NCBI GenBank assembly: GCA_018825385.1
Contig: JAHJEX010000071.1
Location: 1,547 to 65,546 of the forward strand
Source: Patescibacteria group bacterium
Lineage (GTDB): Bacteria > Patescibacteriota > Patescibacteriia > UM-FILTER-42-10
Reading direction: 5' to 3'
DNA length: 64,000 nucleotides
The notes below the pieces were generated by a model. It saw only the letters and a program-made list of their open reading frames with translations. It was not told the origin of the DNA and did no database searches. Positions 2,166 through 25,803 of the stretch are shown here, in pieces (position 1 is the first letter of the stretch; each line of letters begins with the position of its first letter). The position numbers were made by a program, and so were the translations under genes.

Positions 2166-2167
2166 AT

Positions 2168-3703: not shown

Positions 3704-3705
3704 AA

Positions 3706-5154: not shown

Positions 5155-5155
5155 T

Positions 5156-8113: not shown

Positions 8114-8119
8114 ACATAC

Positions 8120-9010: not shown

Positions 9011-9131
9011 TTTGCCAATTCAATAAACAAAAACAGCCTTTATTGCTGTTTCTATTATACCATTCCTAACCGATTTTAAAAGCTAAGGCAGCATTTCTGA
9101 GATTTTTATTTTATACTATATCAGATTTTGA

Positions 9132-10913: not shown

Positions 10914-10945
10914 ATACTGCTATTTCACTGTCTATGACAGTTTGT

Positions 10946-12607
10946 TTAGTTAGGCGGAAAAAATTTGCCTACAGCTATATTTATGCCTGATTGCATTTCA
11001 TTCGGAAACGCCACCACTTCATACAACGGATATTCACCCATCCCTTTCCATATTTTAATTACCGCCCGATCGCCTGATTGGACTGCCGTAACAATCTCGT
11101 CCACTCCATTATAATCAAAATCACCAGTCGCTAAGCTTACACCTCCACGAAATTCAGGATGATATGCATAAAATCCATTGTGATACAGAGTCATAGAACC
11201 GTCCGGCAAACGACGAAATATTCTAACATGCGGTCCGCCCACAGCTACCGGCGCTGTAATAATTTCATCACGGCCGTTTCCCAATAAGTCTCCGACCGCT
11301 ATGTTAACTCCCCCTCTAAAGGTAGCCGGATATGCCATGAATCCCAATATATGAGGCCAAATTTTGTTTCCTTCATAATGAAAAATACGAACATGTGGCC
11401 CACCGGTTAAAATACCAGGTGCTGTGATTATATCAGCATGTCCGTCTGCATCTAAATCTCCACTTGCTATATTCCAACTTCCTCTCAGCCATTCATTATA
11501 TGCAAAAAAGTTTTCAATTGTAGGAACATAGGCTCCATCTCGTTTACCAAATATCCTAATATTTGGTCCCCCGTTTGATGCTGGAGAAACAATTATTTCT
11601 TTATTACCCTTCTTATCTACATCACCTATCGCTACTTTTACACCACTACGAAATCCCTCTTGGTATACTGAAATTTCATTCAGTAAATCACCTTTCCAAT
11701 TAAATATTCTCACCTTTGGTTCATAGCCAGGTCCCGGTCCAACCACGATTTCGTCGATTCCATCGGAATCAAGATCACCCGCCGCAACATTAACTCCACC
11801 TCGAAATGATTCAGAATAAGCAAAAAATTGAGAAAGCAAAGTTCCGGTTTTTGTCAGAATCCTAATTTGAGGTCCGCCACCCTGATTTGGTGCTGCAACT
11901 AAATAACTTTCTTGAATTTGAAGTTCTTCTCCGCCAACCGGAGGTTGAGGTGCTACTTCTGGCGGTGTCTCTTCTGTTGGCGGTATTTCTTCCAACGGTG
12001 ATGTGGGTGAGCTGACTATATTGCATTCTTCCGTTTCATTAGGACGATCTTCTTCTTTACCACAATTGTTCAAATCACTACATTCTCTTGTTTCTGTGCT
12101 GTCAACACATTCTGACCACGCTGAACATGTCCAAGATACAACACAGTCTGTAGTATGTGAAGCGATATTAGAAAGCGCTGACCATTGTCCTTCATTATCT
12201 ACAGTTTTTATCGCAAAATAGTAGGTAGTATTTGGGGCCAATCCCATAACTACAAAAGTTTCTTCAGTTCCGGCAAGTGAAGGAGCGGGAGGATCTGCAA
12301 TCTGCGAAGCAGTTGTCCAACCTGAATCATCTATCACCTGAGTACTGTAACGAATATCATATTCAGAAGCCGTACCAGAAAAATCATCATCCCCTGGCGC
12401 TGTCCAGGTAAGTATTACAGAATTTGTTGAAGTGGCACCGAAACCTGCCTGTACTTCATTCAGATGTATCTGATTTCCATAAGGATATAAAAAACTATAA
12501 GCTAAACCAATAAACGCAGTCAATGCAGCAATAACAGCAATTTCAATATTGATTCTCACAAGTAGTTTTGCATTGTTTTTAATTATTGCGACTGATCTCA
12601 CTTGCAT
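10946..12607 (-). CDS. Membrane-anchored FG-GAP-repeat beta-propeller protein with a fibronectin type III-like domain
   Basis: It has an N-terminal TM segment. An FN3-like segment reads TWTAPGDDDFSGTASEYDIRYS. There are about seven repeats of FxxxxxxFRGGVNxAxGDLDxDGxDEIVxxPGxxGGPxVRIF, the FG-GAP pattern. Confidence 0.6.
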   Translation of the reverse strand: MQVRSVAIIKNNAKLLVRINIEIAVIAALTAFIGLAYSFLYPYGNQIHLNEVQAGFGATSTNSVILTWTAPGDDDFSGTASEYDIRYSTQVIDDSGWTTASQIADPPAPSLAGTEETFVVMGLAPNTTYYFAIKTVDNEGQWSALSNIASHTTDCVVSWTCSAWSECVDSTETRECSDLNNCGKEEDRPNETEECNIVSSPTSPLEEIPPTEETPPEVAPQPPVGGEELQIQESYLVAAPNQGGGPQIRILTKTGTLLSQFFAYSESFRGGVNVAAGDLDSDGIDEIVVGPGPGYEPKVRIFNWKGDLLNEISVYQEGFRSGVKVAIGDVDKKGNKEIIVSPASNGGPNIRIFGKRDGAYVPTIENFFAYNEWLRGSWNIASGDLDADGHADIITAPGILTGGPHVRIFHYEGNKIWPHILGFMAYPATFRGGVNIAVGDLLGNGRDEIITAPVAVGGPHVRIFRRLPDGSMTLYHNGFYAYHPEFRGGVSLATGDFDYNGVDEIVTAVQSGDRAVIKIWKGMGEYPLYEVVAFPNEMQSGINIAVGKFFPPN

Positions 12608-12927
12608 TTAGTTAGTGTTCAAATCCATGGATATTTTATTGATTAAAAAAGTAATCAAGCACACTGAGTTTATAACACCTCAATAAAAAATCGCTGAACA
12701 AACAGCGACTGAAAAAAGAAAAATAACGATTATATGCGCTATTCTATTTTTTTGTTTTGATGCAACAATACCATTACGCATAATACTATAGAATTCATAT
12801 TTCTATGTTTATTGTAACAAAAGTAATCACTTTTGTCAATTTTTAGATTAAATAATTTCAACAATATCTATAACTTTCCCGTACACTTAAGTTCTTTTTC
12901 CCAATTGAGAAATTTGTTCCAGAGACC

Positions 12928-13525
12928 CTAGAGACTGTTACTTTCATATGCCTTCTCCAGTTCCATAGCCATTGAACTAAAAAAACCAATTTTATAGAAA
13001 TATTGGTCGCGGGTTTTTTTATCAAATATTGAACGTAATCTAATTTTATTTTCTTTCATCCAAGCCGAATATTTTCCACCAGTATCATCGAGGATCGCTA
13101 CTATGCTAGAAATTTTCAATTCCCCTTTAGAATTCTTTATGAATACTTGTTTACTTGAACCAGTAGCAATTACATCGTCAACCAGTACAGCACGAGCTCC
13201 TTTTTCTATATATTCCTTCTACCAGAGCATCAGTAGAATAACCTTTAGACTTTTTTCTAATATAAACCCATGGGAGATTCAATTCCATGGCAGTAGTAGC
13301 AGCTAAACTGATCCCGCCCGTTTCGCTACCAGCTATCACTTCAATTTTCGGCTTAATTTTTTTGATTATTCGAGCAAATTCCTGCGCAATTGTTTTTAGC
13401 ACTACTGGATAAGACAAAGCAGCTTTAGGATCCCAATAGATTGGAACAATTCTTCCGGCCTTAATTTTAACGCCTGTAGTATAAAAACGTTCTTGAGCCA
13501 ATACTTCAATCGCTTTATTATTCAT
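12928..13525 (-). pseudogene. Orotate-PRTase-like phosphoribosyltransferase, split by a frameshift in an A5 run near 13178-13185 (ORFs 13178..13525 and 12928..13119)
   Basis: The N-part ends ...ALVEGIYRK. The alternative frame continues GARAVLVDDVIATGSSKQVF...SSIVAILDDTGGKY, the PRPP-binding loop. The last 5 codons come from the 32-nt comM-fragment repeat. Confidence 0.6.
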
Positions 13526-14997
13526 ATCTTTTTTATTACCCCTTTTTCCGCATCTACAAATACTTTGTCACCATCTTTGAAAATTCTTGTCGCAATTTTT
13601 GTTCCTACAATGCAAGGAACTTTTAGTTCTCTAGAAACAATTGCCGCATGTGAAAGCAAGCCTCCTTCATCAGTAACGATTGCGCCCGCCCGTTCCATAG
13701 CAGGAACATAAGTAGGGTTAGTAGAATTGGCTACTAGGATATCCCCTCGTTCTACTTTGCGAACATCATGGACAGTAAAGACAAGCCTGGCTTTCCCTCG
13801 AGCTTGCCCGGGACTTGCTGGTTGACCGATTAACTCTTTTGTTTTTACCAATTCTTGTTCCCTTTTGCGATGTTTCGTTGTGTACTGCTTAAGCTTTACT
13901 CCCGAATATACTTTCCGCTGACCATTTTCTAGAATTAATGCATGATCCGAATGACGAAGTTTTGCCTCCCTTTTCATGTTAGCAGACAATTTTCCTTTTT
14001 TTAGCGCACTAATAATTTCATCTGCTCCTAGTGAATAGAAATGCCTACATGGTATCCCAAGTCTGTGCGATATCTCCTGCCAAAGCCCCCACAAATTATG
14101 TACTACATAGCCATAAGTTTCATCAACATAGTTCGACAATGAACACCAGCGCTTTATATGATATATCTGTAATCTGGTTTCTTCGTCAAGTTCAATCTTT
14201 TTTATTGATTCTTCAGTTAACTTATCATTTCTATCCTGTATTCTAAAATCATCGATTAAAGCTTTGAATTTCTTTGGCGATAATGATAAATATTCCCTCA
14301 ATCTACTTTTTAAATTCTCAACAGTATATGCCACCCCTCGAAAATAGTAGAACCCCAGATAAGCATATTCAGAAAGATGGTTTTCCAGTTTTATTATTAC
14401 CTTTTCGTCATTCATTATGATTTTATTCTTACGGATAGACTCAGCTATTTTCACTAAGCTCCGTTTTTCTGTCCGCATTTCTGAAGGTCTATCAGCTTCA
14501 AAAAATATTCCTATATATTTATTCTGTTCATATAAATCCGGTATTTTAGCCGCTATTTTAGTTGTAACAATGTCCGGTAAAAACTGGTTCAGGTAAATAT
14601 AATCGTATGCAAAACACCATATTTTTTTGGAATGTTCATACCATTCAGCAAATACCCTGATCAATTCTAGATTACTCGACTTTGCAAAGTCAAACGATCC
14701 ATAGTAGTCTGCAAAACGACGATAATCTGTAATTCTTTGTTTATATTCTCGTTCATAGTCAAAAAGATTTGAATCCTTGCCAGTTAATGCTTTTTCCATA
14801 ACCGAACGATACAGTTTGAAATCCTCCCTTCCATACCATCGGGCGTTATCAAACTGCCGATAATTTCTAATATTCTTTTTTACCCGATGTGCCTTCGCCC
14901 ATAGACCTTCTTTATAAAGAGAAATAATCGAATCAATAACCAAAAAAGGATGCGCTTTTCCTCTTCGTGCAATTTCAATCCATTTAGTATTTGTCAT
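13522..14997 (-). CDS. PEP-utilising-enzyme mobile-domain protein, paralog 7
   Basis: C-terminus GGLLSHAAIVSRELKVPCIVG...DGDKVFVDAEKGVIKKI, with a paralogous N-domain. Confidence 0.75.
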   Translation of the reverse strand: MTNTKWIEIARRGKAHPFLVIDSIISLYKEGLWAKAHRVKKNIRNYRQFDNARWYGREDFKLYRSVMEKALTGKDSNLFDYEREYKQRITDYRRFADYYGSFDFAKSSNLELIRVFAEWYEHSKKIWCFAYDYIYLNQFLPDIVTTKIAAKIPDLYEQNKYIGIFFEADRPSEMRTEKRSLVKIAESIRKNKIIMNDEKVIIKLENHLSEYAYLGFYYFRGVAYTVENLKSRLREYLSLSPKKFKALIDDFRIQDRNDKLTEESIKKIELDEETRLQIYHIKRWCSLSNYVDETYGYVVHNLWGLWQEISHRLGIPCRHFYSLGADEIISALKKGKLSANMKREAKLRHSDHALILENGQRKVYSGVKLKQYTTKHRKREQELVKTKELIGQPASPGQARGKARLVFTVHDVRKVERGDILVANSTNPTYVPAMERAGAIVTDEGGLLSHAAIVSRELKVPCIVGTKIATRIFKDGDKVFVDAEKGVIKKI

Positions 14998-14999
14998 AT

Positions 15000-16562
15000 T
15001 TAAACCTTCTTAATAGTTCCTTTTTCAGCATCTACGATTACCCTATCACCGTCTTTCAAAAACAAATCACAATTACGAACCCCCACCACACATGGAATTT
15101 TCATCTCTCGTGCTACAATCGAGGTATGACAAGTCAGACCGCCCGCTCCCCCTACTAATGCAGATGCCTTTTTCATAGCCGGAACCAGATTTGGGTTGGT
15201 ATTGTGCGCCACCATAATATCCCCCTTTTTCATTTTCTTCATTTCATCAGGAATATTTATTACTTTAACTATACCTTCAACTTTTCCGGGATAGGCGCAT
15301 GTACCAATAAGTTTGTTTACATTGTTTTTAGGTTTTTGTAGTTTAATTGATTTCATGAACTGTTCAGCTTGCTTCCCTGTTATGACTTTGTTGATATATC
15401 TAGCGCTCCCCGTTCTTTTGTAATAGTCTACAGCCTTTTTTAGCCTTTCATTTAAAACATTAGCATCAACCTCGCCCTTTTTCAGTGATTCTATTATTTC
15501 GCTGGGTTTCATTGCCTGAACCTGATTTACTGAAAGTCCGAATCTTTTACCAAATTCTCTGAATATTATTTCATAATAATACATTGCATTATATAGCCCG
15601 TTTTTTCTATAACTTTTAATAAATACCATCTCTTGAGCCATTTTGAGAATATTTTTTTCATGCTCCGTAAAGCCAATTTGCCCTATAAGCTTTTTTTGCT
15701 CTTTCAACAAGTCTTGGCGATCTTTTTTCTTTTGCTCCAATACTGTTTGTGGATTACTCTGTTCGCGCAAAAACGCCTGCCAACGTGATATATAATCCTC
15801 TAGAGGATACGCCGGCCCTTTGTATTGATAGGTAAGCGGGCTATAGCGCTGATAATGACTGACAACCTTTTTGTAAATCTCTTTATCCAGATTCGCTAAA
15901 TTATTTTTCAGACCCTGAAGGCTGGACTGTATAAAAGTCTCTTTGAGTTTCCTTTTTTTACTTATATCCGATGCGATTCTTAGGAAACTTTCTTCCTCTT
16001 TTTCCAGTAAACTTTTTTTATTCGGTGATGTTAAGATCGAGAATACTTTTGATGCACTTTCTTGTATTTTGTTGCTTTCCAGCTTTTTAGCAATCAATCT
16101 TAGAATTGCTTTAGTTGTCAGTTGATCACCGGCATCAACATGCCAGCTTACAGCAGTGGCATGCCCATGACTAATCATGTGAATTTTCCATAATTCTTTC
16201 ATCAGTTTAGCGATCTGTATATCAGTCATATTCCCTAAATCCAGCTTTTCAACATTTCTCATTACTTTAAAGAATTCAGTTGTGGCAATTTCTATCCTTT
16301 TTAGGATTTTTAATGCCCATTTTGGATTTTTAATTGCCTTGTCCGAAAGAAATTTGCATTCCGCATCAAACTCCTTCTTAACGTAGATCATTTGAGAAAA
16401 ATCACCATTAAAATATGTAAGAAATTCTTTCTCAAAACTTCCAGATCCCTGTTTTGGATACACGGTATAAAAAGCAATGCTTGGAATCTCCATCATGAAC
16501 ATTGTATTTTGGGGAATATCCTCAACTGCTATGTATGTTTTTTTCGTTCTACCCTTCGTCAT
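15000..16562 (-). CDS. PEP-utilising-enzyme mobile-domain protein, paralog 8
   Basis: C-terminus GGLTCHTSIVAREMKIPCVVG...DGDRVIVDAEKGTIKKV. The N-domain has PLTYQYKGPAYP. Confidence 0.75.
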   Translation of the reverse strand: MTKGRTKKTYIAVEDIPQNTMFMMEIPSIAFYTVYPKQGSGSFEKEFLTYFNGDFSQMIYVKKEFDAECKFLSDKAIKNPKWALKILKRIEIATTEFFKVMRNVEKLDLGNMTDIQIAKLMKELWKIHMISHGHATAVSWHVDAGDQLTTKAILRLIAKKLESNKIQESASKVFSILTSPNKKSLLEKEEESFLRIASDISKKRKLKETFIQSSLQGLKNNLANLDKEIYKKVVSHYQRYSPLTYQYKGPAYPLEDYISRWQAFLREQSNPQTVLEQKKKDRQDLLKEQKKLIGQIGFTEHEKNILKMAQEMVFIKSYRKNGLYNAMYYYEIIFREFGKRFGLSVNQVQAMKPSEIIESLKKGEVDANVLNERLKKAVDYYKRTGSARYINKVITGKQAEQFMKSIKLQKPKNNVNKLIGTCAYPGKVEGIVKVINIPDEMKKMKKGDIMVAHNTNPNLVPAMKKASALVGGAGGLTCHTSIVAREMKIPCVVGVRNCDLFLKDGDRVIVDAEKGTIKKV

Positions 16563-16564
16563 AT

Positions 16565-17131
16565 TTACATCTTATCAATTTTTATTACAGAATTATTATC
16601 CAGGTAATAATTTCGAAATGAGGAGTACTTCCAGTCTTCGGACCTTTTAACCAATCCGGCACGCACAGGATTATTGTGTATGTAATCAAGCTTCTCTTCA
16701 AGATCTTTTTGGTTACGCACAACATGTTCCCAAAATTTCCCTTGGATTACTTTGCCAGAACTTACATTTGCTTTATTGTAGCTATTTGCGAATACTCCAT
16801 CTATATGATGCATTATATCAGAAACTGTTCTTTTCATAGGAGGAATTATCAGTAAGTGAATATGGTCAGGCATGATAACAAAACCTACCAGCTTAAATGC
16901 AAATTTGTTCCGACAATAACTGATAGTTTTAATGTAAAGCGCTTTAAACCTATCCGATTCGAATATTTTTCTTTTTTTATATGGATTCACTGTTATAAAG
17001 TAGCAGTGGTTTTCTAAATAAATTCTTTTCCTCATTTTTTTTATTAGTCGGACCAAACAAGATTTGGTCCTACGTCTTAAAACTAATTCTTTCTCTATTC
17101 GCTTTGCGAGCCTGCCTGCATATAGCCCCAT
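16565..17131 (-). mobile_element. IS200/IS605-family Y1 HuH transposase (TnpA) or REP-associated tyrosine transposase (RAYT)-like gene embedded in the operon
   Basis: The HuH motif reads VMPDHIHLLIIPP, with a Tyr-containing C-terminal region (SFRNYY). The stop lies 3 nt from the downstream paralog start. A 9-bp-stem hairpin sits 64-88 nt upstream of the ATG. Confidence 0.65.
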
Positions 17132-17194
17132 TTCAACTAAACAGGTAAATATCGTTTGATCTTGTATTTAAATAAGCTGGTTTTCTATTCACGT

Positions 17195-17219
17195 AGCTGA
17201 CAAATCTTGTTTGTCAGCT
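17195..17219 (-). repeat. Hairpin agctgacaa-N7-ttgtcagct upstream of tnpA; candidate IS200-type left-end subterminal hairpin
   Basis: This is a near-perfect inverted repeat read directly from the sequence. Its orientation is wrong for a terminator of the upstream minus-strand gene. Confidence 0.35.
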
Positions 17220-17346
17220 CGTTTTACTGCTATGTATGTTTTATTCATATTTTTTATTTTAACGGTGCTTGTAGTGAGTTGGGTTCTTTATGAAGTATAT
17301 GTTCTTCCCACAAAAACTAAAATAAATTATTGCTACTCTATTGCTA

Positions 17347-18036
17347 TTAAAGAATATCGCTTTTCAATGATTTCTTCCACGCCATAAACATGTTCCAATT
17401 CTTTTTGTTTTTGTGCCAGCCGGTGGGATCAGCAAGGTAGGCTTTTTGGATTGCTATCGCTTCTGGAGGCATCTTTTTCGCCCTACACACGCATTCAAGC
17501 CATTCATGCCGATTATAAAGGGTGTCAAAAGTAATTCCAATTTTCTTTAATTGCTTTTTGAATTTCTGATTTTTCATGTGCCAGGGATCATTGATAACCA
17601 TCACATGTTTTATTTTTATCCCATCTTTTGCACAATCTTTAATAGCTTTTAACACTGTACCACCCAAAGCAATTACATCATCAATCAGCACGCCAACAGC
17701 ACCTGATTGATAATCACCTTCCACCCATTTTCTGCGTAAAGTGGATTTTTTTTCTTTATTCAAGTAGGCAAAAGGTATTCTGGTTTTTAAACTTGTCGCC
17801 AGAGCAATAGGAATGCCGGCCATTGGAATTCCTACAATCAGATCTACCTTACCACTCTGGTTGTATTTTCTAATTATCTTGCCCAATTCCCCGGAAATTA
17901 TTTCAACTACTTTAGGGTGAGAGTAAAGGCATCTGCTATCGTTGTAAAATGGCACAATGGCACCGGTAGTCGTTTGATTAAAAGGACCAACATAGATTTT
18001 CATTTTAGCCACTTCTCTTAAAACCTGCTTATTCAT
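17347..18036 (-). CDS. Type I phosphoribosyltransferase (orotate-PRTase-like) with a C-terminal W-x-K-N-x3-W extension
   Basis: The PRPP loop reads VGVLIDDVIALGGTV. The C-tail has DPTGWHKNKKNWNMF. Confidence 0.6.
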   Translation of the reverse strand: MNKQVLREVAKMKIYVGPFNQTTTGAIVPFYNDSRCLYSHPKVVEIISGELGKIIRKYNQSGKVDLIVGIPMAGIPIALATSLKTRIPFAYLNKEKKSTLRRKWVEGDYQSGAVGVLIDDVIALGGTVLKAIKDCAKDGIKIKHVMVINDPWHMKNQKFKKQLKKIGITFDTLYNRHEWLECVCRAKKMPPEAIAIQKAYLADPTGWHKNKKNWNMFMAWKKSLKSDIL

Positions 18037-18038
18037 AA

Positions 18039-18791
18039 TTAAATTTTATCAAAACTCTTATCAAAAATTAAATTCTTTTCCTTTATTGCTATCTTTTTAA
18101 AATTTTTCCAATTTGCCGGATTTTTCTGCCATGCAAATGGATCATCAATTTGTTTGATAATTAGTTCGCTTAGTTCTTTGCTGATGAAATTACTTTCTGC
18201 AGCATATTTCATTAATTCTGGCCAGGTCGTAAGAGCAACAAATTTGTATTTTTTATTTTCTCTCAGCCACTGTTGTGGTTTGCGATATTTTGATCCGTAA
18301 AACGCATCTAAAATAACCACCACTCCCTTCACTTTCAATCCTACGCCCTCTAGTACTTTTACAATTTCCTTTTTATCTCCACCTCTTGATATTGCATCGT
18401 CCACAATTACTACCGTTTGGTTATTTTTGTAAACTCCTTCAATAACGCTATTAGTAGTGTACCCCTTTGGTTCTTTTCTTAGATATAGGAAATCTTTTTT
18501 TAGTTGATTGGCAACAGATACTCCATAAGGTATACCGGCTGCTTCCCTGCTGGCAATTAGATCAGGATTAAGCTTCCTGACTTCCTTCGCCATCTCCTTG
18601 GCAATAACTTGTAAAACTTCATTTTTAGAAAATGCTTTGCGATTATCTGGATATAATGGGAAATAGCCGATTCGAGGACTCTTTAGCCGACAAGCCAAAA
18701 AATACTCCTTAAATAGCAATGAGTTTGCAGCTTTTTTATTCATATTTTTATCATAATAGTTTTGGAATCTCGGCAACGATGTCTGATGCAC
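18039..18791 (-). CDS. Orotate-PRTase-like phosphoribosyltransferase with a W-x-K-N-x3-W tail
   Basis: Motifs LYLRKEPKGYTTNSVIEGVY and VVIVDDAISRGG match the PyrE type. The tail has DPFAWQKNPANWKNF. Confidence 0.65.
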   Translation of the reverse strand: MHQTSLPRFQNYYDKNMNKKAANSLLFKEYFLACRLKSPRIGYFPLYPDNRKAFSKNEVLQVIAKEMAKEVRKLNPDLIASREAAGIPYGVSVANQLKKDFLYLRKEPKGYTTNSVIEGVYKNNQTVVIVDDAISRGGDKKEIVKVLEGVGLKVKGVVVILDAFYGSKYRKPQQWLRENKKYKFVALTTWPELMKYAAESNFISKELSELIIKQIDDPFAWQKNPANWKNFKKIAIKEKNLIFDKSFDKI

Positions 18792-19542
18792 TATAATTGT
18801 ATGATACTTTTTTTAGTAGCTTGTCTGCCGCTGCTCCATTCAAGTACGGCCCTGCACAAGCCGACAAAAACAGATCATTTGTGCAAGCAAGGGCCGCAAT
18901 TAAACCGGCTAAAACATCGCCTGTTCCTCCTTTGGTCATGCCCTGATTTCCGGTTATGTTAAATTTTACTAGCTTGGGAGTGGGAGAAGCAATAATATCT
19001 TTCTTCCCTTTCAATACTATTATACACCCAAATCGCTTTGCCATCTTCCGTACATTCAGCTCAGTAGCTTTGAGACCAAAGAGTATTTCAAATTCCTTGT
19101 GGTGAGGGGTAATTATGTGATTTTTATTCAGTAAACTCATATCCACTATTTTTAAAGCATCCGCATCCAATACAAACTTTTTTTGGGGAAATTTTTTAAG
19201 AAGGGCATTTAGCAATTTTCTTTCCTTAGCAGAAGTGCCTAATCCCGGGCCAGCCAATACAACATCTGATTTAATAATATATTCTGGAATATCAATTCTT
19301 GAAATAGTAATAAATTCGAACAGTTTAGGCTTTAGTTTTTTTATTACTCCATAGTTTTCCGAATCGGAAAAAATATATACAAGGTCAACTATCTTTGACG
19401 CGATAGTTGCGGCCAGCAATAATGCTCCGTGGTATTTCTTCGACCCACCTATAATAAAAAGTGAACCATTATCTCCCTTATGCGAACCGGATTTAGGTTT
19501 ATTCAATTTAGTTATTTCGTTTTTACTGACAATATTTTTCAT
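18751..19542 (-). CDS. nnrD: ADP-dependent (S)-NAD(P)H-hydrate dehydratase (YjeF C-terminal domain)
   Basis: The motifs HKGDNGSLFIIGGSKKYHGALLLAA and GGTGDVLAGLIAALA are read from the translation. Confidence 0.65.
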   Translation of the reverse strand: MKNIVSKNEITKLNKPKSGSHKGDNGSLFIIGGSKKYHGALLLAATIASKIVDLVYIFSDSENYGVIKKLKPKLFEFITISRIDIPEYIIKSDVVLAGPGLGTSAKERKLLNALLKKFPQKKFVLDADALKIVDMSLLNKNHIITPHHKEFEILFGLKATELNVRKMAKRFGCIIVLKGKKDIIASPTPKLVKFNITGNQGMTKGGTGDVLAGLIAALACTNDLFLSACAGPYLNGAAADKLLKKVSYNYSASDIVAEIPKLL

Positions 19543-20174
19543 ATCAACTTTTTCAGGTCTTTGATATTGTTGAAAACATGAATATGGTTTGTAATATTTT
19601 CAGGGAAGATTCCTTTTTCCAACATGGCATTATAAATGCTTTCCCAAAAACTGCTGATATAAACCTCCGGCGGAATTAAGCCTTGCTTTTGACTGGATTT
19701 TACATAACCAATTGCGCCGATCATTTCATCTAATGTACCGGTACCACCTTCATACACCACGACATGCGGTGCGGAAACAATCATCATTTTGCGGGTGAAA
19801 TAGTTGCGTACAATTGCCTTCGGGCCATAGGGTATGATTTTGTGATATTCACATGCTATCCCTAACACCATATCCGGTTCTGCCTCGGCAGCCGCAATCA
19901 TGGAACCGTAGTTTTCACCCCCGTTTATAATTACTCCTCCTTTTTTTACTACATATCTTGTAAACTCCGCAACGTCTTGGTAAACCTTATCCTCTGGAGC
20001 AAATGACGCTCCACCACAAATGCTTATCACCAATCCATTGTGGACAATTTCTGCTTCAGCAGGTTTTTTTGTATTTCTAACTACACATTCTCCTTTAGAA
20101 TTTTTTACTTTGCTCTCTTGAATTACGTTTCCAGGAAGTAGCATATTGTTTTCGGGTAGTAAGGATGACGTCAT
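19539..20174 (-). CDS. LOG-family (TIGR00730, cytokinin riboside 5-monophosphate phosphoribohydrolase-like) protein
   Basis: Motifs ISICGGAS, INGGENYGSMIAAAEA and VVYEGGTGTLDEMIGAIGY match the LOG PGGxGTxxE motif. Confidence 0.65.
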   Translation of the reverse strand: MTSSLLPENNMLLPGNVIQESKVKNSKGECVVRNTKKPAEAEIVHNGLVISICGGASFAPEDKVYQDVAEFTRYVVKKGGVIINGGENYGSMIAAAEAEPDMVLGIACEYHKIIPYGPKAIVRNYFTRKMMIVSAPHVVVYEGGTGTLDEMIGAIGYVKSSQKQGLIPPEVYISSFWESIYNAMLEKGIFPENITNHIHVFNNIKDLKKLI

Positions 20175-20179
20175 CCTTA

Positions 20180-21133
20180 CTACTCCCTTGTATTAATATC
20201 TGTTAATTCATCTGTAATCAAATCTGAAAGTGAAATCACTTTCAATTGACTAAATTTTTTTTCAGGCGGTAAGGCAATGGAATCAGTTACTACAATCTCT
20301 TCGAGACCGGATTTTTTGAGCCTTTGGATTGCCGGTTCGGATAAAACTGCATGGGTAGCTGCAAAATACATTTTATTTGTACCAAGCTTTTTGAGCAATC
20401 TGACGTTTTCCACTAAAGTTCCGGCTGTGTTTATTTCATCATCAATCATCACAACATTCTTTTTTGCGATATTTGCATTTTTCCCTGATACTGTTTTTCC
20501 CGCCTTTGGTGGGACCCCGCCGTAGGCGGTGGTAAGACTGCTCACTTTATCATGCTTGATTCTAATTTTTTTCATAACTAATAATGGAAGTCCCATGTAT
20601 GATGCAAATTTTCTTGAGCGAGCAATACTCCCTTCATCCGGAGCTACTACAATATCTATATCCTTTTTACGGAAATAGTCCGCAAACAATGAAAACGTAG
20701 ATATTTCTTTAACGGGAATTTTGTAAAATCTCTTTATTGCGGGGCTATGAAGATCAATAACAACAAGTTTATCGATTTTATTCGCTTGTAACAATCTCGC
20801 AATCACCTGAGCCGATACGGCATCCCCCTTTTTAGATTCCCTTTCTTGCCTGCGGTAAGGGTAAAACGACAAAACTACTGTTATTTTTTTCGGCTTTAAC
20901 CGCTTTACTGCATCCAGAATTAAAAACAGCTCTAATACATGTTCGTCTGACGGTATAGAGCCTGATTGCAATATTATGACTTCTTTTCCCTTCACATTCT
21001 CCTGCACATTCACATATTTTTCGCCATCACTGAATTTCTTGATTATAATATTTCCCAGTTCAGTATTCATCTGCTTGGCAATTTTTTTTGCCAGAGGGAT
21101 ATTTGAAGATCCGCTAAGTATAATTTTTTTCAT
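20180..21133 (-). CDS. prs: Ribose-phosphate pyrophosphokinase (PRPP synthetase)
   Basis: VVIDLHSPAIKRFYKIPVKEIS matches the DLHA..IQGFF.IPVD region. VVMIDDEINTAGTL is the PRPP-binding loop. The length is 317 aa. Confidence 0.8.
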   Translation of the reverse strand: MKKIILSGSSNIPLAKKIAKQMNTELGNIIIKKFSDGEKYVNVQENVKGKEVIILQSGSIPSDEHVLELFLILDAVKRLKPKKITVVLSFYPYRRQERESKKGDAVSAQVIARLLQANKIDKLVVIDLHSPAIKRFYKIPVKEISTFSLFADYFRKKDIDIVVAPDEGSIARSRKFASYMGLPLLVMKKIRIKHDKVSSLTTAYGGVPPKAGKTVSGKNANIAKKNVVMIDDEINTAGTLVENVRLLKKLGTNKMYFAATHAVLSEPAIQRLKKSGLEEIVVTDSIALPPEKKFSQLKVISLSDLITDELTDINTRE

Positions 21134-21804
21134 TTGCTTGACCCGTTAAAACCTTCTGATCTGGCTATTGCCACAAATTCATCCCATTTTTTTTGATCTT
21201 TTTGCCATATTTTCAGGTTCTTCCAGATATCGTACATATAATTTGCCAGTTTTTTCGAAATATATCCGTTACTAACCATATATTTTACAAGATCATTATG
21301 CCTGACAAAAGAGTGAATAGTTATTTTATTCTTTTCATAAAAAGGAAGATGCCCAACTCCCGCATCATATAGAACCAGAACGTGGTTTACAACCAGACCT
21401 TTTTTTTGGAGCTTTTTTATAAAGCGCTCTTTCGTTTTACCGGTGCCAATTCCGTCATCTACCACCAATACATTTTCTCCTTTTCTGTACAGTCCTTCCA
21501 GCAAAGTTACTATTGAACCGTCTTTTCTTTTCTTTTGTCTAAGATAAATAAATGGTTTGTGGGAAGCAAGAGATACAGCCATAGCTAGCGGGGTTCCTGA
21601 GACCATAGTTCCAGCTACCAAATCAATGTTCTTCCCTTTCATAAACTTCGCAATCTCTTCTGATACAGCCTGCATTTTGTCTGGATGAGAGTAAAGTTTC
21701 TTGCTGGTGATGTAAATAGGAGAAGGTTCGCCAAGTGATCCATAAAACTTTCCAAAAACAAAAAAGCCAAAGTCACTTAATAATTTTGCAATCCGCTTGT
21801 TCAT
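21130..21804 (-). CDS. Orotate-PRTase-like phosphoribosyltransferase with a W-x-K-N-x3-W tail
   Basis: The core reads SIVTLLEGLYRKGENVLVVDDGIGTGKT. The tail has KIWQKDQKKWDEF. Confidence 0.65.
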   Translation of the reverse strand: MNKRIAKLLSDFGFFVFGKFYGSLGEPSPIYITSKKLYSHPDKMQAVSEEIAKFMKGKNIDLVAGTMVSGTPLAMAVSLASHKPFIYLRQKKRKDGSIVTLLEGLYRKGENVLVVDDGIGTGKTKERFIKKLQKKGLVVNHVLVLYDAGVGHLPFYEKNKITIHSFVRHNDLVKYMVSNGYISKKLANYMYDIWKNLKIWQKDQKKWDEFVAIARSEGFNGSSK

Positions 21805-21893
21805 AAATTAATTTGGTCAATAAACGTACTATACTATTGTAGTATATATTATTAAAAGAATAAAGGAGGAAGAATAGTAAATATTTGCGAGAA

Positions 21894-21972
21894 ATCCCGC
21901 ATATGCGGGATGACGAAGCAATCCCGTTTCAACTCAAAACCTGTTCCGAATAAGGAGCGGGATTGCTTCGTC
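21894..21972 (-). promoter_or_regulatory. Structured leader with mutually exclusive hairpins upstream of PRTase gene 21130..21804; candidate attenuator, riboswitch-like element or terminator of 22026..22772
   Basis: A perfect palindrome atcccgcatatgcgggat lies at 21894-21911. It is directly followed by a 15-bp-stem hairpin, gacgaagcaatcccg (21912-21926) paired with cgggattgcttcgtc (21958-21972). The gggat/atccc segments allow alternative pairings. Confidence 0.3.
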
Positions 21973-22025
21973 ACTCCTATTTTAAAATAGTAGCTCCTCG
22001 CAATGGTTACTGCTATTTATCCATT

Positions 22026-22772
22026 TCACAACTCCCTGTTCCTCCTCATTTCATCCACAGCCTCAATGACTTCTTGAGGAATAGGATAGTTTAGTTTCTT
22101 TAATACTTCAAAATAAGTATCCCATTTTGATGCATTTTTGCTCCAGGTTTCAGGATGTTTGGCATAATCAATAAAGTAAGGAAAAATTTCTTCATCAATT
22201 ATTCCTCGTTTATACAAACCTTCAATCAGCTCCTCCCAGGCGAACAAACAATAAATAGGCATGCCGCTGTTTTCTAATTTTTTCCGATCCTCATTTTCCT
22301 GAAAAAATTTAGCCATCGTTTTGAAAATCATTGCCAATGCAACTGTTTCTACTCCATCATGCTTCATATTCTCTATGAACAACTTCTTAGACCCTCCTTT
22401 TGCCATGAGGTCATCTACTAAAATAGCCTTATCACCAGGATTTGCGCCACCAGAAATAAATCTATCATCACCAGTTCCACGCATTTTTTTTCGAATATAA
22501 TTGAAAGGGACCCGTGTCTTATGTGACAGTATTGCGGCTAATGGCATGCCGGCTGTTTCTGCTCCCATTATTATATCAATTCCCTTCCAATCAATTAAAT
22601 TTTTTAATGTATCAGCCAATAAATCCATCAAGTCTGGGTTTGAAAAAGCTCGACGGTTGTCTAGCTGTATAGGAACAGGCCCCACTGTGACTTTGACCGG
22701 ATGTTTTACCACTATATTTGGAGACTTAGCATACAAATCAAATATTTTTTCTTTAGTTTTTTGATCAATCAT
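22026..22772 (-). CDS. Orotate-PRTase-like phosphoribosyltransferase with a W-x-K-N-x3-W tail
   Basis: The core reads PGDKAILVDDLMAKGGSKK. The tail has HPETWSKNASKWDTYF. Confidence 0.6.
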   Translation of the reverse strand: MIDQKTKEKIFDLYAKSPNIVVKHPVKVTVGPVPIQLDNRRAFSNPDLMDLLADTLKNLIDWKGIDIIMGAETAGMPLAAILSHKTRVPFNYIRKKMRGTGDDRFISGGANPGDKAILVDDLMAKGGSKKLFIENMKHDGVETVALAMIFKTMAKFFQENEDRKKLENSGMPIYCLFAWEELIEGLYKRGIIDEEIFPYFIDYAKHPETWSKNASKWDTYFEVLKKLNYPIPQEVIEAVDEMRRNREL

Positions 22773-22913
22773 TTTAGTTGATTCTTAAAAAATGGATAAG
22801 GAAATCGTGAAAAGGCTTCCAGAATCTGTTTTTTGTATTTAATGGTGGTCATATTTTAAGCTTATTTTAGCATAAAATTAGCTAACCCTGCTAGAAGCTA
22901 TTCTCTGTCAGGG

Positions 22914-22942
22914 TTGACAAAATGGGCAATCAGGTATATAAT
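22914..22942 (+). promoter_or_regulatory. Consensus sigma-70-type promoter (TTGACA-17 nt-TATAAT) driving the high-GC cassette gene
   Basis: TTGACA is at 22914-22919 and TATAAT at 22937-22942. A GGAGG Shine-Dalgarno sequence lies at about 23099-23103, 9 nt before the ATG at 23113. Confidence 0.5.
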
Positions 22943-23106
22943 GAGCTGTTAAAATAGAATACTGGAGAGAGTAGTAGGCATTCTGTTGCAAGTGATATAT
23001 CATCGTTTTCAATAGAGTGCCTATTTGAATGGCACGTTGACATATAGACCACTTCCGGCTTTGATTTCTATGAAGCTGGCTTAGGAGTTTTCTCTCAATT
23101 GGAGGT

Positions 23107-23679
23107 TTGCGAATGACGAAGCGTTTGTTTATTCAGGGCGACGGTAATCTCGGTATGGAGCAGGCAGCTACTGCTCAAAGAATCGGCCAGCTCCTAGCTG
23201 CAAAAGGCTGGGAAGCCAACGTGGGGAGTCACGGAGATCTGGTGCCGATCATGATGGAATCCGGCATCCCATGCCACGCACACGTTGCAAAAATGAGGGA
23301 GGATGTTGATTACGGCTGTCTTGCAAGCGTGACCGGCTGTAATCAGCTCGCGAGCGAACTGATTCCCTCATTGCCGACAACCAACGAGGACACCGAGAAG
23401 ATGCTGGCCTGGGGAATTCGCCTTGGCCTGTGGATGTCAACGTCCGACGCCTTCCTGTTCATCGGAGGTGCCGAAGGAACGCTGGCGCATCTCGTGCCCG
23501 TACTGGCATGGAACCGCAAGGCTCTAGCCAAGGAAGGTCGAGCCAAGAAGATCGTCGTGATCGGCTGGACGCGGGAACGAATCCAGGCACTGCAGATGCT
23601 CGGCATCTGCTCACCGTCCGATACTTGGCTCTCGTTTCACTCGAACGAGGAAAGTGTTGTTGAGTTCCTCACTTCGTAA
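23107..23679 (+). CDS. LOG/SLOG-family Rossmann-fold protein encoded in a ~56% GC foreign cassette (probable true start ATG at 23113)
   Basis: SDAFLFIGGAEGTLAHLVPVLAWNR aligns with the LOG PGGFGTLEEL..TW motif. The composition is strikingly GC-rich against the AT-rich flanks, and the region is filled with overlapping spurious ORFs on both strands as expected for high GC. Confidence 0.5.
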   Translation: MRMTKRLFIQGDGNLGMEQAATAQRIGQLLAAKGWEANVGSHGDLVPIMMESGIPCHAHVAKMREDVDYGCLASVTGCNQLASELIPSLPTTNEDTEKMLAWGIRLGLWMSTSDAFLFIGGAEGTLAHLVPVLAWNRKALAKEGRAKKIVVIGWTRERIQALQMLGICSPSDTWLSFHSNEESVVEFLTS

Positions 23680-23717
23680 ATACATGATCTTTCGCGGAAA
23701 TTACTCCGCACCCCCTT

Positions 23718-23772
23718 ACGCATCAAACTGTCTTCGGACGGGGCGATGCGTAAGGGTATTTATTTTGTCAAA
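23718..23772 (+). terminator. Rho-independent terminator of the high-GC cassette
   Basis: A 12-bp stem, cccttacgcatc paired with gatgcgtaaggg, is followed by a T-rich tail gtatttattttg. Confidence 0.5.
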
Positions 23773-24803
23773 ACTCTCCTACACCAATCAGCTGTTGCAT
23801 TTTTTTTACTTGTCACTAGTGCTAGTCCTGTTTCTCTTATTCTACTTTCCCACTGAGGCCACTTTTCATAATATGAGCCAGACTTACCATCAGTTCGTGA
23901 GACCATATACACGCCCATCCACATTACAATCCTTTTTACAATTCCTTTAACATGGTACTCTGAGACGCTATGTGATTTCATTGTATTTATGTATGATTTC
24001 ACAAATCTTCTAACAAAGTTACGGCAATCTTTGGTGATCTTCTCTTTTCCTTCTAATGATTTGATAACCCATTGTGCTAAAAAGACGCCATTATCAAGAG
24101 CAGGATCATGATGCATAGTGAAGTCAAAATCTATTGCAGTAAAATCAGTTTGACTGATAAAAATATTTCTGTGCACTGGATCTCCCCAAACAAGAGCTTT
24201 TTTCGTTTTTTTGGTTTGGTTTACAAATTTGTTAATCACACTTCTGTCTACATATTTTTTTACTCCAAATACCAACCAATTCGTCCATAATTTATAGATT
24301 CTTTTCTGCCAAGCTGAATTATCAAACATTGGTGGTGTATTATATGTCTTGCCGTGCAAATTTCCAAAAAAAACGCCAAATTTGTTTGCGAGTTGGTGAT
24401 ATACTTTATCTTTTTCAAATTCTTCAATCAGCATCTTTCTATTTCCTTGAACATCCAGCATTACCGAAATACAATTTTTGTAATCAACATACAAAACATG
24501 GGGTACAATTTTTTTCCCCAACAAAGATTCCAGAAATTTTATTTTTTCGCTCTCGACAACTGTTCTTATTGGCTCAACTTTGATCTCTTTGTTTCTCTTA
24601 ATATGCCCACGGGACTGTTTTAAGTATAGGATTTTTTTACCCTGACTGGTTTGACAATCTGCCCTATAAATAAAACTAGCGTTAGAGTACTTTGTTACTT
24701 CCTTGACGCTTGTAACTTTTTTTAGTTCAAATGGGAACTCTTTTGCAGAATCTTTCAGGAAACGCAGTATATTCTTTTCGTTTAGAATAAGTCTTTTTTT
24801 CAT
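23760..24803 (-). CDS. Protein-kinase-like-fold phosphotransferase (aminoglycoside/choline/MTR kinase APH family-like)
   Basis: WGDPVHRNIFIS matches the HGD.H.GN catalytic loop. AIDFDFTMHHDPALDNGVFLA matches the IDxE...GDP.YDLA motif. Confidence 0.45.
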   Translation of the reverse strand: MKKRLILNEKNILRFLKDSAKEFPFELKKVTSVKEVTKYSNASFIYRADCQTSQGKKILYLKQSRGHIKRNKEIKVEPIRTVVESEKIKFLESLLGKKIVPHVLYVDYKNCISVMLDVQGNRKMLIEEFEKDKVYHQLANKFGVFFGNLHGKTYNTPPMFDNSAWQKRIYKLWTNWLVFGVKKYVDRSVINKFVNQTKKTKKALVWGDPVHRNIFISQTDFTAIDFDFTMHHDPALDNGVFLAQWVIKSLEGKEKITKDCRNFVRRFVKSYINTMKSHSVSEYHVKGIVKRIVMWMGVYMVSRTDGKSGSYYEKWPQWESRIRETGLALVTSKKNATADWCRRVLTK

Positions 24804-24885: not shown

Positions 24886-25803
24886 TCATTCAGCAAGTGC
24901 TGCCAAGAAGATTTCATACTCTTCTCTAGTGAGACCGACTGTTCCCATCTCAACCCCCTCTGGCTTGAAGGAGCCGTGGTCGTCAGATCCACCGGTTACA
25001 ATAAAACCGCAGTCTGTAGCGATATTCAGGAGCTCATGGACCGTCGCATCATCATGCAAGGGATAATGGACTTCAATTCCATCCATCCCGAGATCTCTCC
25101 ACTCGTAGAGCTCCGCTTTTGACGGCATCGTCCTGGGACGTTTTTTAGCCGCCAAATGCGCTGCGACCGATTTTCCACCGGCCTGTCGAATCAACTCTAT
25201 AGATCGTGATAAGAGTATGGTCTTTTTGGGCGGGAGGGTGTTTGCATTGACCACCCGGTCATACGCTTTTCGGAAGGCGCGATAGCTCATCTGAAGCGGG
25301 TCAGGCAGACAACCAGCATTAACAAGCGTCATCTTCAAAGCAGCCTGAGTTACAAGGAGCTGAGTCAGATCAATCTCAGCAAGTCTCTCCCGTGGCACTC
25401 CGGCCGCCAAAGCAAAAACATCTTCAGGATCAATGTGGAGATCATGAACCCGGGCAATGTTTTTGCAGGCTTCTCGTATCCGATTAAGTCGAATACAAGA
25501 TATCCCCGCAAGCGCCTCACTTAACTCACGGCTGTCTGCATCGATGTTATAACCCAGTAGATGAATTTCATGTTCTCCAGCTTGGGACGAAATCTCTACT
25601 CCGGAATGGAAGATGAGGCCATGCTTTTTGGCAGTTGCTTCCGACTCCGCCACTCCTGCCATAGTATCGTGACTAAGAATTGTCAGAGCGCCGATCCCCC
25701 TATGCTTAGCCAGTAGGCAAATTTCCTCCGGACTACGAGAGGAATCATTGCCGGGGTAGTTCCGGTGAATATGCAGATCAGCAAAAATCTTTCGTTTCGA
25801 CAT
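24886..25803 (-). CDS. PHP-domain metal-dependent phosphoesterase
   Basis: The N-terminus reads FADLHIHRNYPGNDSSRSPEEICLLAKHRGIGALTILSHD. The C-terminal region reads GGSDDHG. GC is noticeably higher than the local average by eye. Confidence 0.6.
   Translation of the reverse strand: MSKRKIFADLHIHRNYPGNDSSRSPEEICLLAKHRGIGALTILSHDTMAGVAESEATAKKHGLIFHSGVEISSQAGEHEIHLLGYNIDADSRELSEALAGISCIRLNRIREACKNIARVHDLHIDPEDVFALAAGVPRERLAEIDLTQLLVTQAALKMTLVNAGCLPDPLQMSYRAFRKAYDRVVNANTLPPKKTILLSRSIELIRQAGGKSVAAHLAAKKRPRTMPSKAELYEWRDLGMDGIEVHYPLHDDATVHELLNIATDCGFIVTGGSDDHGSFKPEGVEMGTVGLTREEYEIFLAALAE

Follow-up and report, generated by a model that had tools for sequence, protein, structure and literature searches.

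The closest known relatives of the genes described here are the orotate phosphoribosyltransferases (OPRTs, PyrE) of the Listeria/Bacillus/Streptococcus/Bacteroides/Burkholderia class (NF001729/TIGR00336; PDB entries 4ohc, 9e5g, 3m3h, 4rv4, 3dez and 2aee). Five genes related to this class, named PRT-A to PRT-E, lie in a 64-kb (64,000 nt) stretch of DNA from a Patescibacteria group bacterium, which is referred to here as the window and to which all coordinates apply unless a related locus is named (Table 1). Like that class of PyrE, the paralogs have the OPRT fold, the phosphoribosyl pyrophosphate (PRPP) loop, the pyrophosphate (PPi) loop, the architecture of the flexible loop, the C-terminal helical region and a W-x-K-[ND]-x3-W motif. 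Unlike PyrE, they are only 19-26% identical to those chains and score far below the equivalog cutoffs, the segments of their base pocket are orthogroup-specific, and 15-38 extra residues follow the second Trp of the motif. Furthermore, two to five paralogs are found per locus instead of a single gene beside pyrF, and no pyr operon lies nearby within the 64-kb window.

A second described arrangement that resembles the locus is the recycling of nucleotides by LOG/PpnN-type nucleoside monophosphate nucleosidases together with PRPP synthase (Prs) and salvage phosphoribosyltransferases (PRTases). The window operon has a LOG protein with a canonical motif, an ordinary Prs and multiple PRTases, and in relatives the operon includes a genuine nicotinate phosphoribosyltransferase (NAPRTase). 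However, the PRTases of the window are OPRT derivatives and not orthologs of Apt, Hpt, Gpt, Upp or PncB, a second LOG-fold protein without the catalytic Glu is present, and an MtnK/PsiK-like kinase is the most conserved partner. The new element is the multiplication of OPRT-derived PRTases, with unusual partners, in a narrow lineage, whereas the type I PRTase/OPRT ancestry and the tail motif were already known. The five genes are best read as a lineage-specific radiation of PyrE-derived PRTases that would serve as a PRPP-dependent salvage module for several bases, to which we assign a probability of about 55%. The observations on which this builds are the fold, the retention of catalytic motifs, the orthogroup-specific pockets, purifying selection, the operon structure and the recurrence of the cluster.

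All four intact PRTase genes, PRT-A to PRT-D, which an earlier note on this DNA had located, are present on the minus strand, and their single-domain products of 224-250 aa score 34-39 bits with PF00156, for which the Pfam cutoff is 26.3 (E-values of 6e-10 to 2e-8). The reading frame of PRT-B is open up to a GTG at 18791 (18039..18791) and contains an internal ATG at 18743 that gives 234 aa; the latter is most likely the start, because the orthologs begin there (MNKRAAKALLF). The assignment to the orotate type in the same note agrees with both sequence and structure comparisons. The best NCBIfam match of each of the five paralogs is an OPRT model, and the intact ones have TIGR00336/NF001729 scores of 56.6/73.3 bits for PRT-A, 78.4/90.5 for PRT-B, 76.0/69.2 for PRT-C and 55.0/97.5 for PRT-D. 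Models for Apt, Hpt and Xpt match much more weakly, with 20-47 bits at best against cutoffs of 125-243, and the NCBIfam models for Upp are unmatched by all four. PyrE chains in the PDB are matched at 1e-28 to 1e-33 in profile searches. In addition, the AlphaFold2 (AF2) model of PRT-D (pLDDT 92.7) consists of one type I PRTase domain and lies nearest to the OPRTs 4ohc/9e5g, 3dez and 3m3h of Burkholderia, Streptococcus and Bacillus. All top Foldseek matches of this model are OPRTs, and the alignments to these chains have TM-scores of 0.77-0.78 normalised by target, with ~215 of the 248 residues aligned at 19-26% identity. The window paralogs are OPRT-type type I PRTases. The IEG/LEG signature that had been described in front of the PRPP loop does not apply to PRT-D, which has ISG in place of IEG. 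None of the four intact paralogs reaches the PyrE equivalog cutoffs (TIGR00336, 106.8 bits; NF001729, 245 bits); with every curated cutoff missed, they do not represent the standard complement of Apt, Hpt, Upp and PyrE.

The paralogs have diverged strongly from one another and are narrowly distributed. Pairwise identity among the four intact proteins is only 25-27%, with 16 invariant columns in their alignment. A profile of the family retrieves only 103 cluster representatives at E<=1e-30 among 1.84 billion, and the named relatives are Patescibacteria, including Uhrbacteria and Kerfeldbacteria, with the one exception of a metagenome-assembled genome (MAG) binned as Marinimicrobia. Relatives of group A were found by a pattern scan in only four of 185,579 species-representative genomes and in four JGI metagenome contigs. 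Orthologs of PRT-A (43-77% identity) occur in at least five genomes, Uhrbacteria and Kerfeldbacteria among them, and the orthologs of PRT-C are 65-87% identical, with a dN/dS of 0.015. In a midpoint-rooted neighbour-joining (NJ) tree without support values, each of PRT-A to PRT-E belongs to a deep sub-clade of its own within a radiation of tail-bearing proteins. This radiation stands apart from the canonical PyrE clade, in which the sequence of B. anthracis lies, and from short proteins of an archaeal-like type, and it includes further sub-clades with no member in the window. Judged from these comparisons, the radiation appears to contain at least seven orthogroups, five of which are present in the window, and to belong to a narrow set of groundwater Patescibacteria. 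Alignment and phylogeny, from which the earlier note had hoped to learn the preferred bases, set the five genes apart from PyrE, but the bases themselves are not readable from sequence. No description of this PRT radiation or of its gene cluster was found in the literature.

Every orthogroup retains the elements that handle PRPP, namely the acidic DD pair in the PRPP loop, EG and the basic residues in the flexible loop, and the G-x-P motif of the PPi loop. In OPRTs, the base pocket is lined by the N-terminal hairpin, the loop after the DD pair and the hood segments. Each orthogroup of the paralogs has its own, internally strongly conserved version of the hairpin, of the residues that follow DD and of the hood, which differs from those of the other orthogroups. 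Comparison of the window with related genomes gives pN values of 0.07-0.20 with saturated synonymous sites, and dN/dS values of 0.015-0.10 where these can be calculated. The paralogs are under constraint, functionally differentiated and probably catalytic. The conserved Lys of a 'KSP' hairpin was considered as a marker of orotate binding and dropped, as two proteins that pass PyrE cutoffs (P0115 and P0132) have 'ILSP' instead. The search of representatives also returned tandem OPRT proteins of ~420-470 aa with two domains each (P0045, P0047, P0050, P0055 and others), one of which is annotated as orotate phosphoribosyltransferase in a Candidatus Helarchaeota MAG (MHA1377831.1). In P0045 and P0055 the PyrE equivalog is matched over two stretches and W-x-K-[ND]-P-x2-W is present in both halves. 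These proteins resemble an obligate OPRT dimer whose two subunits have been fused into one chain.

Since all members are nearest to PyrE and have the C-terminal motif of its class, with nearly canonical flexible loops in PRT-B and PRT-E, the set could be taken for redundant isozymes of an ordinary orotate PRTase, that is, one true PyrE accompanied by drifting duplicates. This is extremely improbable given the low pairwise identity and the failure to reach TIGR00336 (55-78 bits vs 106.8) and NF001729 (69-97 vs 245). Each orthogroup is, moreover, separately conserved across genomes under purifying selection, domain scans found no pyr gene among the annotated open reading frames (ORFs) of the 64-kb window, and relatives have an extra, more canonical PRT of 209 aa alongside (86-89 bits). 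Archaeal NF002620 proteins and GfcR (NF045507) are likewise OPRT-derived paralogs that are not PyrE, and by this analogy the window proteins could be non-catalytic or regulatory sensors that bind PRPP or nucleotides, like PurR, PyrR or the archaeal OPRT-like GfcR. Weak matches to the NF002620 'orotate phosphoribosyltransferase-like protein' model (30-47 bits) in all four intact paralogs, a GfcR match in PRT-C only and the very basic tails of group A speak for such a role. It is nevertheless improbable, as the proteins consist of a single domain without a helix-turn-helix (HTH) or other DNA- or RNA-binding domain, score far below the cutoffs (115 bits for NF002620) and differ in their tail and orthogroup structure. 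The retention of the DD pair, the basic residues of the flexible loop and EG in all orthogroups also argues for enzymes, and co-transcription with PRPP synthase fits enzymes that consume PRPP.

The genes PRT-C, Prs, LOG, NnrD, PRT-B and PRT-A form an operon with spacings of -4, 5, -4, 7 and 2 nt: Prs and PRT-C overlap by 4 nt, and PRT-B lies 7 nt past the NnrD stop and 2 nt before PRT-A. The interleaving of the paralogs with Prs, LOG and NnrD, which the earlier note had pointed out, is borne out by the family thresholds, which LOG passes only just. The LOG protein carries the canonical motif EGGTGTLDE (PGGxGTxxE type), aligned to the type-II LOG 5zi9, and is a divergent member of the family because it scores below the TIGR00730 cutoff (40.8 vs 96.35). 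The block PRT-C-Prs-LOG-NnrD-PRT-B recurs in two further contigs, namely L022, which is the closest relative of the window and was available as DNA, and the P0313 contig (JGI 3300072015), for which only a gene table was available. In both, the slot of PRT-A is taken by a true NAPRTase (PF17767/PF17956). Speculatively, a classical pyridine PRTase and an OPRT-like paralog may have displaced one another here. In the related locus L004, the PRT-A slot holds neither PRT-A nor a NAPRTase.

The surroundings of the paralogs were surveyed with custom hidden Markov models (HMMs) built from the window proteins over all fetched loci, and with gene tables, which gave nine contexts. In the window (context 1), the order is kinase, SLOG190, D, C, Prs, LOG, NnrD, B, A, IS200, two phosphoenolpyruvate (PEP)-utilizer genes and the PRT-E pseudogene. 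In L022 and the P0313 contig (context 2), it is kinase, SLOG190, a 233-aa member of a seventh orthogroup, D, C, Prs, LOG, NnrD, B, NAPRTase, a pilin gene and PEP-utilizers. L001 (context 3) has kinase, SLOG190, C, B, A, a PEP-utilizer, a 209-aa near-canonical PRT and E; L004 (context 4) has kinase, SLOG190, D, C, B, a PEP-utilizer, the 209-aa PRT and E; and L021 (context 5) has kinase, SLOG190, the seventh type, C and four PEP-utilizers. In L006, L009 and L018 (context 6), the order is LOG, kinase, an A-like gene, a D-like gene and SLOG190; LOG adjoins the PRTs there as well. The Uhrbacteria locus L008 (context 7) has the kinase, SLOG190 and four PRTs, and the Kerfeldbacteria locus L010 (context 8) three PRTs, the kinase and SLOG190. 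In L023 (context 9), PRT-C and an NnrD-like gene lie at the contig end without kinase and SLOG190. The paralogs number two to five per locus, and both their number and their identity vary between genomes.

Two observations from these relatives stand beside the survey. The 209-aa OPRT of L001 and L004 scores 86-89 bits against the TIGR00336 cutoff of 106.8, and ends in ...YLKDPINWGSRIKK without the family extension. Its translation is coupled to that of a PEP-utilizer gene and of PRT-E; in the window, the second PEP-utilizer gene occupies that place. In L023, a bAvd/23S_rRNA_IVP-type gene lies directly upstream of PRT-C, in the place of the kinase and SLOG190. bAvd is an accessory of diversity-generating retroelements.

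Table 1. Positions of the PRTase paralogs, their partners and other genes, with the matches that support each assignment. Coordinates are those of the window unless a related locus is given.
Feature	Coordinates	Strand	Remarks
PRT-A, OPRT-like PRTase (orthogroup A)	17347..18036	-	229 aa; PF00156 37 bits; hood N-D-P-W; tail WHKNKKNWNMF...
PRT-B, OPRT-like PRTase (orthogroup B)	18039..18743	-	PF00156 34 bits; TIGR00336 78 vs 106.8
PRT-C, OPRT-like PRTase (orthogroup C)	21130..21804	-	224 aa; PF00156 35 bits; TIGR00336 76 vs 106.8
PRT-D, OPRT-like PRTase (orthogroup D), longest tail	22026..22772	-	248 aa; PF00156 39 bits; NF001729 97.5 vs 245
PRT-E, pseudogene of OPRT-like PRTase (orthogroup E)	12868..13525	-	comparison with intact orthologs in L001 and L004
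NnrD, NAD(P)H-hydrate dehydratase	18751..19542	-	TIGR00196 210.9 bits vs 129.85; PF01256 164 bits
LOG-family nucleotide phosphoribohydrolase-like protein	19539..20174	-	211 aa; PF03641 30.0 bits vs 27
Prs, ribose-phosphate diphosphokinase (PRPP synthase)	20180..21133	-	TIGR01251 281.3 bits vs 113
SLOG190, divergent LOG-fold protein	23113..23679	+	190 aa; only plus-strand gene of the cluster
MtnK/PsiK-like APH-fold small-molecule kinase	23760..24803	-	PF01636 22.9 bits (cutoff 23.2); TIGR01767 39.3 vs 275
SLOG190 ortholog	L001 7632..8219		
SLOG190 ortholog	L004 9094..9696		
SLOG190 ortholog	L006 11561..12103		
SLOG190 ortholog	L021 10001..10555		
SLOG190 ortholog	L022 7711..8283		
NAPRTase	L022 13678..15060	+	460 aa; after PRT-B
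209-aa near-canonical OPRT	L001 12509..13138		
209-aa near-canonical OPRT	L004 13997..14626		
bAvd/23S_rRNA_IVP-type gene	L023 9551..9916	+	directly upstream of PRT-C
PEP-utilizer array	675..16562	-	seven intact paralogs; six of ~480-520 aa
PEP-utilizer paralog, short	8120..9010	-	296 aa
PEP-utilizer swivel-domain paralog	13522..14997	-	directly upstream of PRT-E; PF00391 83-89 bits for this and the next gene
PEP-utilizer swivel-domain paralog	15000..16562	-	
Putative frameshifted PEP-utilizer	6649..8113	-	386-aa ORF 6953..8113; swivel in another frame, 6649..6981
IS200-like Y1 transposase	16565..17131	-	PF01797 46.8 bits; between PRT-A and the PEP-utilizer genes
PHP-domain phosphoesterase	24886..25803	-	GC 0.50 vs ~0.35 background
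ATP-dependent PEP carboxykinase	55209..56807	-	PF01293 720 bits
Guanylate kinase	59691..61043	-	450 aa; long C-terminal extension

The kinase and SLOG190, which went unmentioned in the earlier note, are the most conserved neighbours of the paralogs, each being present in eight of the nine contexts. The kinase is an APH-fold enzyme whose nearest PDB chains are PsiK (8zic, E 1e-3) and MtnK (2olc, E 0.9). It belongs to the MtnK/PsiK branch in a loose sense only and does not reach the MtnK cutoff (TIGR01767). SLOG190 matches no Pfam or NCBIfam family, those of LOG included, but is related to LOG by hhalign (probability 73%, E 3e-5). The top Foldseek matches of its AF2 model (pLDDT 89.1) include LOG (5its), YvdD, TT1465 and YgdH at TM-scores of ~0.66-0.70; the entries 5its, 1t35, 1wek, 5zbj and 9us2 among them span ~0.62-0.70. 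The protein is predicted to have the LOG Rossmann fold. In place of PGGxGTxxE, SLOG190 has G-[RA]-E-G-T-x-A-H, in which the His is invariant in seven homologs and the catalytic Glu is gone. The gene further stands out by a GC content of 0.56 and a GC content at third codon positions (GC3) of 0.65, compared with ~0.35 and ~0.30 in all neighbouring genes. Its orthologs in five other genomes have a GC3 of 0.60-0.72, with proteins that are 38-57% identical and saturated synonymous sites. A structured RNA as the cause of this GC island is unsupported, with no Rfam match over 22700..23850, z-scores of -2.7/-3.2 and saturation of the synonymous sites.

The pairing of a PRTase with a SLOG-fold protein recalls the logic of the ShosTA system, in which ShosT combines a HAD-type pyrophosphatase with an APRT-like PRTase and ShosA combines SAM and DprA and binds DNA (PMC11961720). 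By this likeness, the cluster could be a conflict or defence module in the manner of ShosTA or of the PRTase effectors of type III-A retrons, in which the PRTase would poison nucleotide metabolism and the SLOG-fold partner would counteract or sense it. ShosA does appear among the structural matches of SLOG190, at rank 29, and PRT-A and PRT-C give weak PADLOC PRTase_III-A matches of 14-26 bits, which are confined to the PRPP loop. However, PADLOC finds no ShosT or ShosA at E<=0.01, and SLOG190 is a much closer match to LOG enzymes than to DprA or ShosA (TMt 0.35). The window has single-domain OPRT-like PRTases and a LOG-like protein of 190 aa, and domain scans found no reverse transcriptase domain among the neighbouring ORFs; Rfam, run over 22700..23850 only, found no non-coding RNA. 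The cluster is, in addition, a chromosomal metabolic operon with Prs, NnrD and NAPRTase in a housekeeping setting that is syntenic across divergent genomes. The defence reading was rejected on the PADLOC result and the domain architecture and is very improbable.

It is also conceivable that the cluster serves to make or alter a particular nucleotide or cofactor outside the canonical set. The kinase, the LOG-fold protein and several PRTases would then provide the steps, or variants, of a single pathway devoted to it, acting for instance on modified bases or unusual sugar phosphates instead of in general salvage. The kinase and the His-variant LOG-fold protein are indeed not standard salvage enzymes, every curated salvage-PRT cutoff is missed by the paralogs, and the family is phylogenetically narrow. 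Such a pathway is rather unlikely in view of the ordinary PRPP synthase (281 bits vs 113) and of NAPRTase and NnrD in the same operon, which point to housekeeping salvage and repair. The variable number and identity of the paralogs, from two to five per locus, is a better fit to interchangeable enzymes acting in parallel, and domain scans revealed no tailoring enzymes (methyltransferases, oxidoreductases) in the cluster.

The C-terminal Trp-rich tail had been presented in the earlier note as a novel conserved extension of ~60 aa that is not part of canonical PyrE. The tail strings themselves (WHKNKKNWNMF, WQKNPANWKNF, WQKDQKKWDEF and WSKNASKWDTYF) were confirmed in the intact paralogs, and the W..K..W positions are invariant in PRT-A to PRT-D. 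However, PyrE structures from Bacillus anthracis, Streptococcus and Burkholderia can be aligned by sequence with the greater part of this region, as far as the first Trp of the motif. The motif was then looked for in other genomes by an exhaustive profile search of cluster representatives and a regular-expression scan of the matches, and the same Trp-rich motif was found at the C-terminal end of many proteins of 205-225 aa outside the paralog family. All eight non-family motif proteins that were tested pass the TIGR00336 cutoff (114-149 bits), and P0115 (...EWFKNPEKWAEKFKK) passes the strict NF001729 cutoff with 250.7 bits, in an alignment that extends through the motif.

Annotated pyrE genes of cultivated bacteria, translated from six records as controls, gave the same picture. 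The protein of Listeria monocytogenes ends in ...LKEWKKNPEKWGK (motif WKKNPEKWGK), that of Parabacteroides distasonis in ...QEWRKDPANWDPK (motif WRKDPANWDPK) and that of Ilyobacter polytropus in ...MKWNKNPNEWGR (motif WNKNPNEWGR), while Bacillus pyrE has the same motif with a two-residue insert; pyrE adjoins pyrF in three of the six records (Bacillus velezensis, Listeria and Paenibacillus). The W-x-K-[ND]-x3-W motif is inherited from the Listeria/Bacillus/Bacteroides/Burkholderia class of PyrE, for which it is canonical. Specific to the family are only the 15-38 residues past the second Trp, with an aromatic residue at +3 followed by one or two helices. Because a further unit, [YW]-x2-[DN]-P-x2-W, lies upstream of the motif in the paralogs, the tail can be aligned in more than one register: HMMER and a large MAFFT alignment place the first Trp of the paralogs on the last Trp of canonical PyrE, and a small MAFFT alignment places motif on motif with a 7-residue insert upstream. 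Under either register, the tail is not novel. A profile of the tail alone gave only spurious matches in the PDB (PPR-repeat, AphA, Bcl-2), and misses PyrE there because the tail is too short. Of the two circumstances that the earlier note had named as fatal to its proposal, the tail is indeed a feature of ordinary PyrE, whereas the paralogs, which miss the cutoffs, are not the standard Apt, Hpt, Upp and PyrE set.

The fifth gene, PRT-E, had been described as frameshifted, which is correct, but it extends beyond the 12928..13525 first given for it and carries further lesions. Intact orthologs of 223 and 225 aa exist in L001 and L004, with 63-65% identity. Relative to these, the window copy has a +1 frameshift within an A5 run (13201-13205), a deletion of five codons by which DRDNW, including the first motif Trp, is lost, and an in-frame TAG at 12928-12930. 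With these three lesions it is a true pseudogene, the decay of which is recent, because the remainder of the gene is well conserved.

PRT-E and the PEP-utilizer gene upstream of it share 4 nt, with the start of the former overlapping the stop of the latter. The earlier note had suggested that the PRTases and the phospho-His (PEP-utilizer) array belong to one larger system. A single point speaks for this: in three related genomes a PEP-utilizer gene overlaps the PRT gene that follows it by 4 nt, this gene being PRT-E in the window and the 209-aa PRT in L001 and L004. However, PEP-utilizer genes accompany the PRT cluster only in contexts 1-5, all of which share synteny with a PA14 giant surface protein, and are absent at the Uhrbacteria, Kerfeldbacteria and L006-type loci. 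The family of ~490-aa PEP-utilizers has >4000 matches across the candidate phyla radiation (CPR) and DPANN archaea. The unity of the two arrays is weakly supported because the association is limited to a sublineage and the PEP-utilizer family is far more widespread than the PRT family. In the two PEP-utilizer paralogs next to PRT-E, the PF00391 swivel domain occupies the C-terminal ~72 residues, and the N-terminal ~400 aa have no sequence match in Pfam or the PDB, as holds for all six members of ~480-520 aa. The family is annotated only as 'PEP-utilizing enzyme', and the window shows no ATP-grasp or PEP-binding domain that could act as a partner. The segment 6649..8113 contains an ORF homologous to the N-terminal region of the PEP-utilizers and looks like a frameshifted eighth member of the array.

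Other genes of the window are less closely tied to the cluster. The IS200-like transposase lies 2 nt from the next gene and is not found at this position in L001 and L004. The PHP-domain phosphoesterase gene is probably a horizontally acquired insertion, because its GC content deviates and the related loci have no homolog there. A guanylate kinase with a long C-terminal extension and an ATP-dependent PEP carboxykinase are encoded further along, and the latter is a possible source of PEP for the PEP-utilizer proteins.

In the salvage of several bases that we favour for the PRT cluster, LOG-type enzymes would release bases and ribose-5-phosphate from scavenged nucleotides, and Prs would regenerate PRPP. 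Each OPRT-derived paralog would then use PRPP to phosphoribosylate a nitrogenous base of its own, by which the needed nucleotides would be rebuilt, with pyridine salvage and repair (NAPRTase, NnrD) attached to the module. One enzyme family, multiplied, would thus supply the salvage enzymes of an organism in which de novo synthesis of nucleotides is presumed to be absent. After the inherited motif, the family has added only one or two terminal helices, and PRT-E has decayed recently in this genome. Catalytic activity, the use of different acceptors and the roles of the kinase and of SLOG190 are the inferred parts of this scheme. A RuBisCO-linked nucleoside salvage route in the CPR has also been mentioned (PMC10811913).

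Several points weigh against this proposal. Acceptor specificity cannot be read from sequence. The genome evidence is limited to 64 kb, and classical apt, hpt, upp and pncB or de novo pathways may be encoded outside it. Nucleotide auxotrophy in the CPR is general background and is only presumed for this organism. The most conserved partners, the kinase and the LOG-fold protein without the catalytic Glu, are not obviously needed for base salvage, Prs is part of the cluster in only three of the nine contexts, and the tree that separates the orthogroups is of the NJ type and midpoint-rooted, with no support values. A substrate-diversified salvage hub, as the earlier note had called it, is nevertheless the best-supported reading, given the pockets, the dN/dS values, the recurring operon and the NAPRTase. 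Its interest is moderate, because the substrate diversification, which is the interesting part, is inferred rather than shown.

The real signal of the locus is the paralog radiation together with its conserved kinase and LOG-fold partners, and not the Trp-rich tail. More tentatively, in a small clade of Patescibacteria, a PyrE-derived family with at least seven specificities, the kinase and the His-variant LOG-fold protein could constitute a previously undescribed pathway of nucleobase or nucleotide remodelling, which would either displace Apt, Hpt and Upp, and perhaps PncB, in a non-orthologous manner or handle non-canonical bases taken from hosts. The genomes of Patescibacteria are tiny, and these bacteria are presumed to rely on other cells for their nucleotides. 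To maintain five to seven deeply diverged copies of one salvage-type enzyme under strong selection is a notable investment for so small a genome. Should every copy be specific for a base of its own, the family would be a natural case of one scaffold re-engineered for many acceptors, would offer enzymologists new PRTase specificities, and would help to explain how episymbionts rebuild their nucleotide pools.

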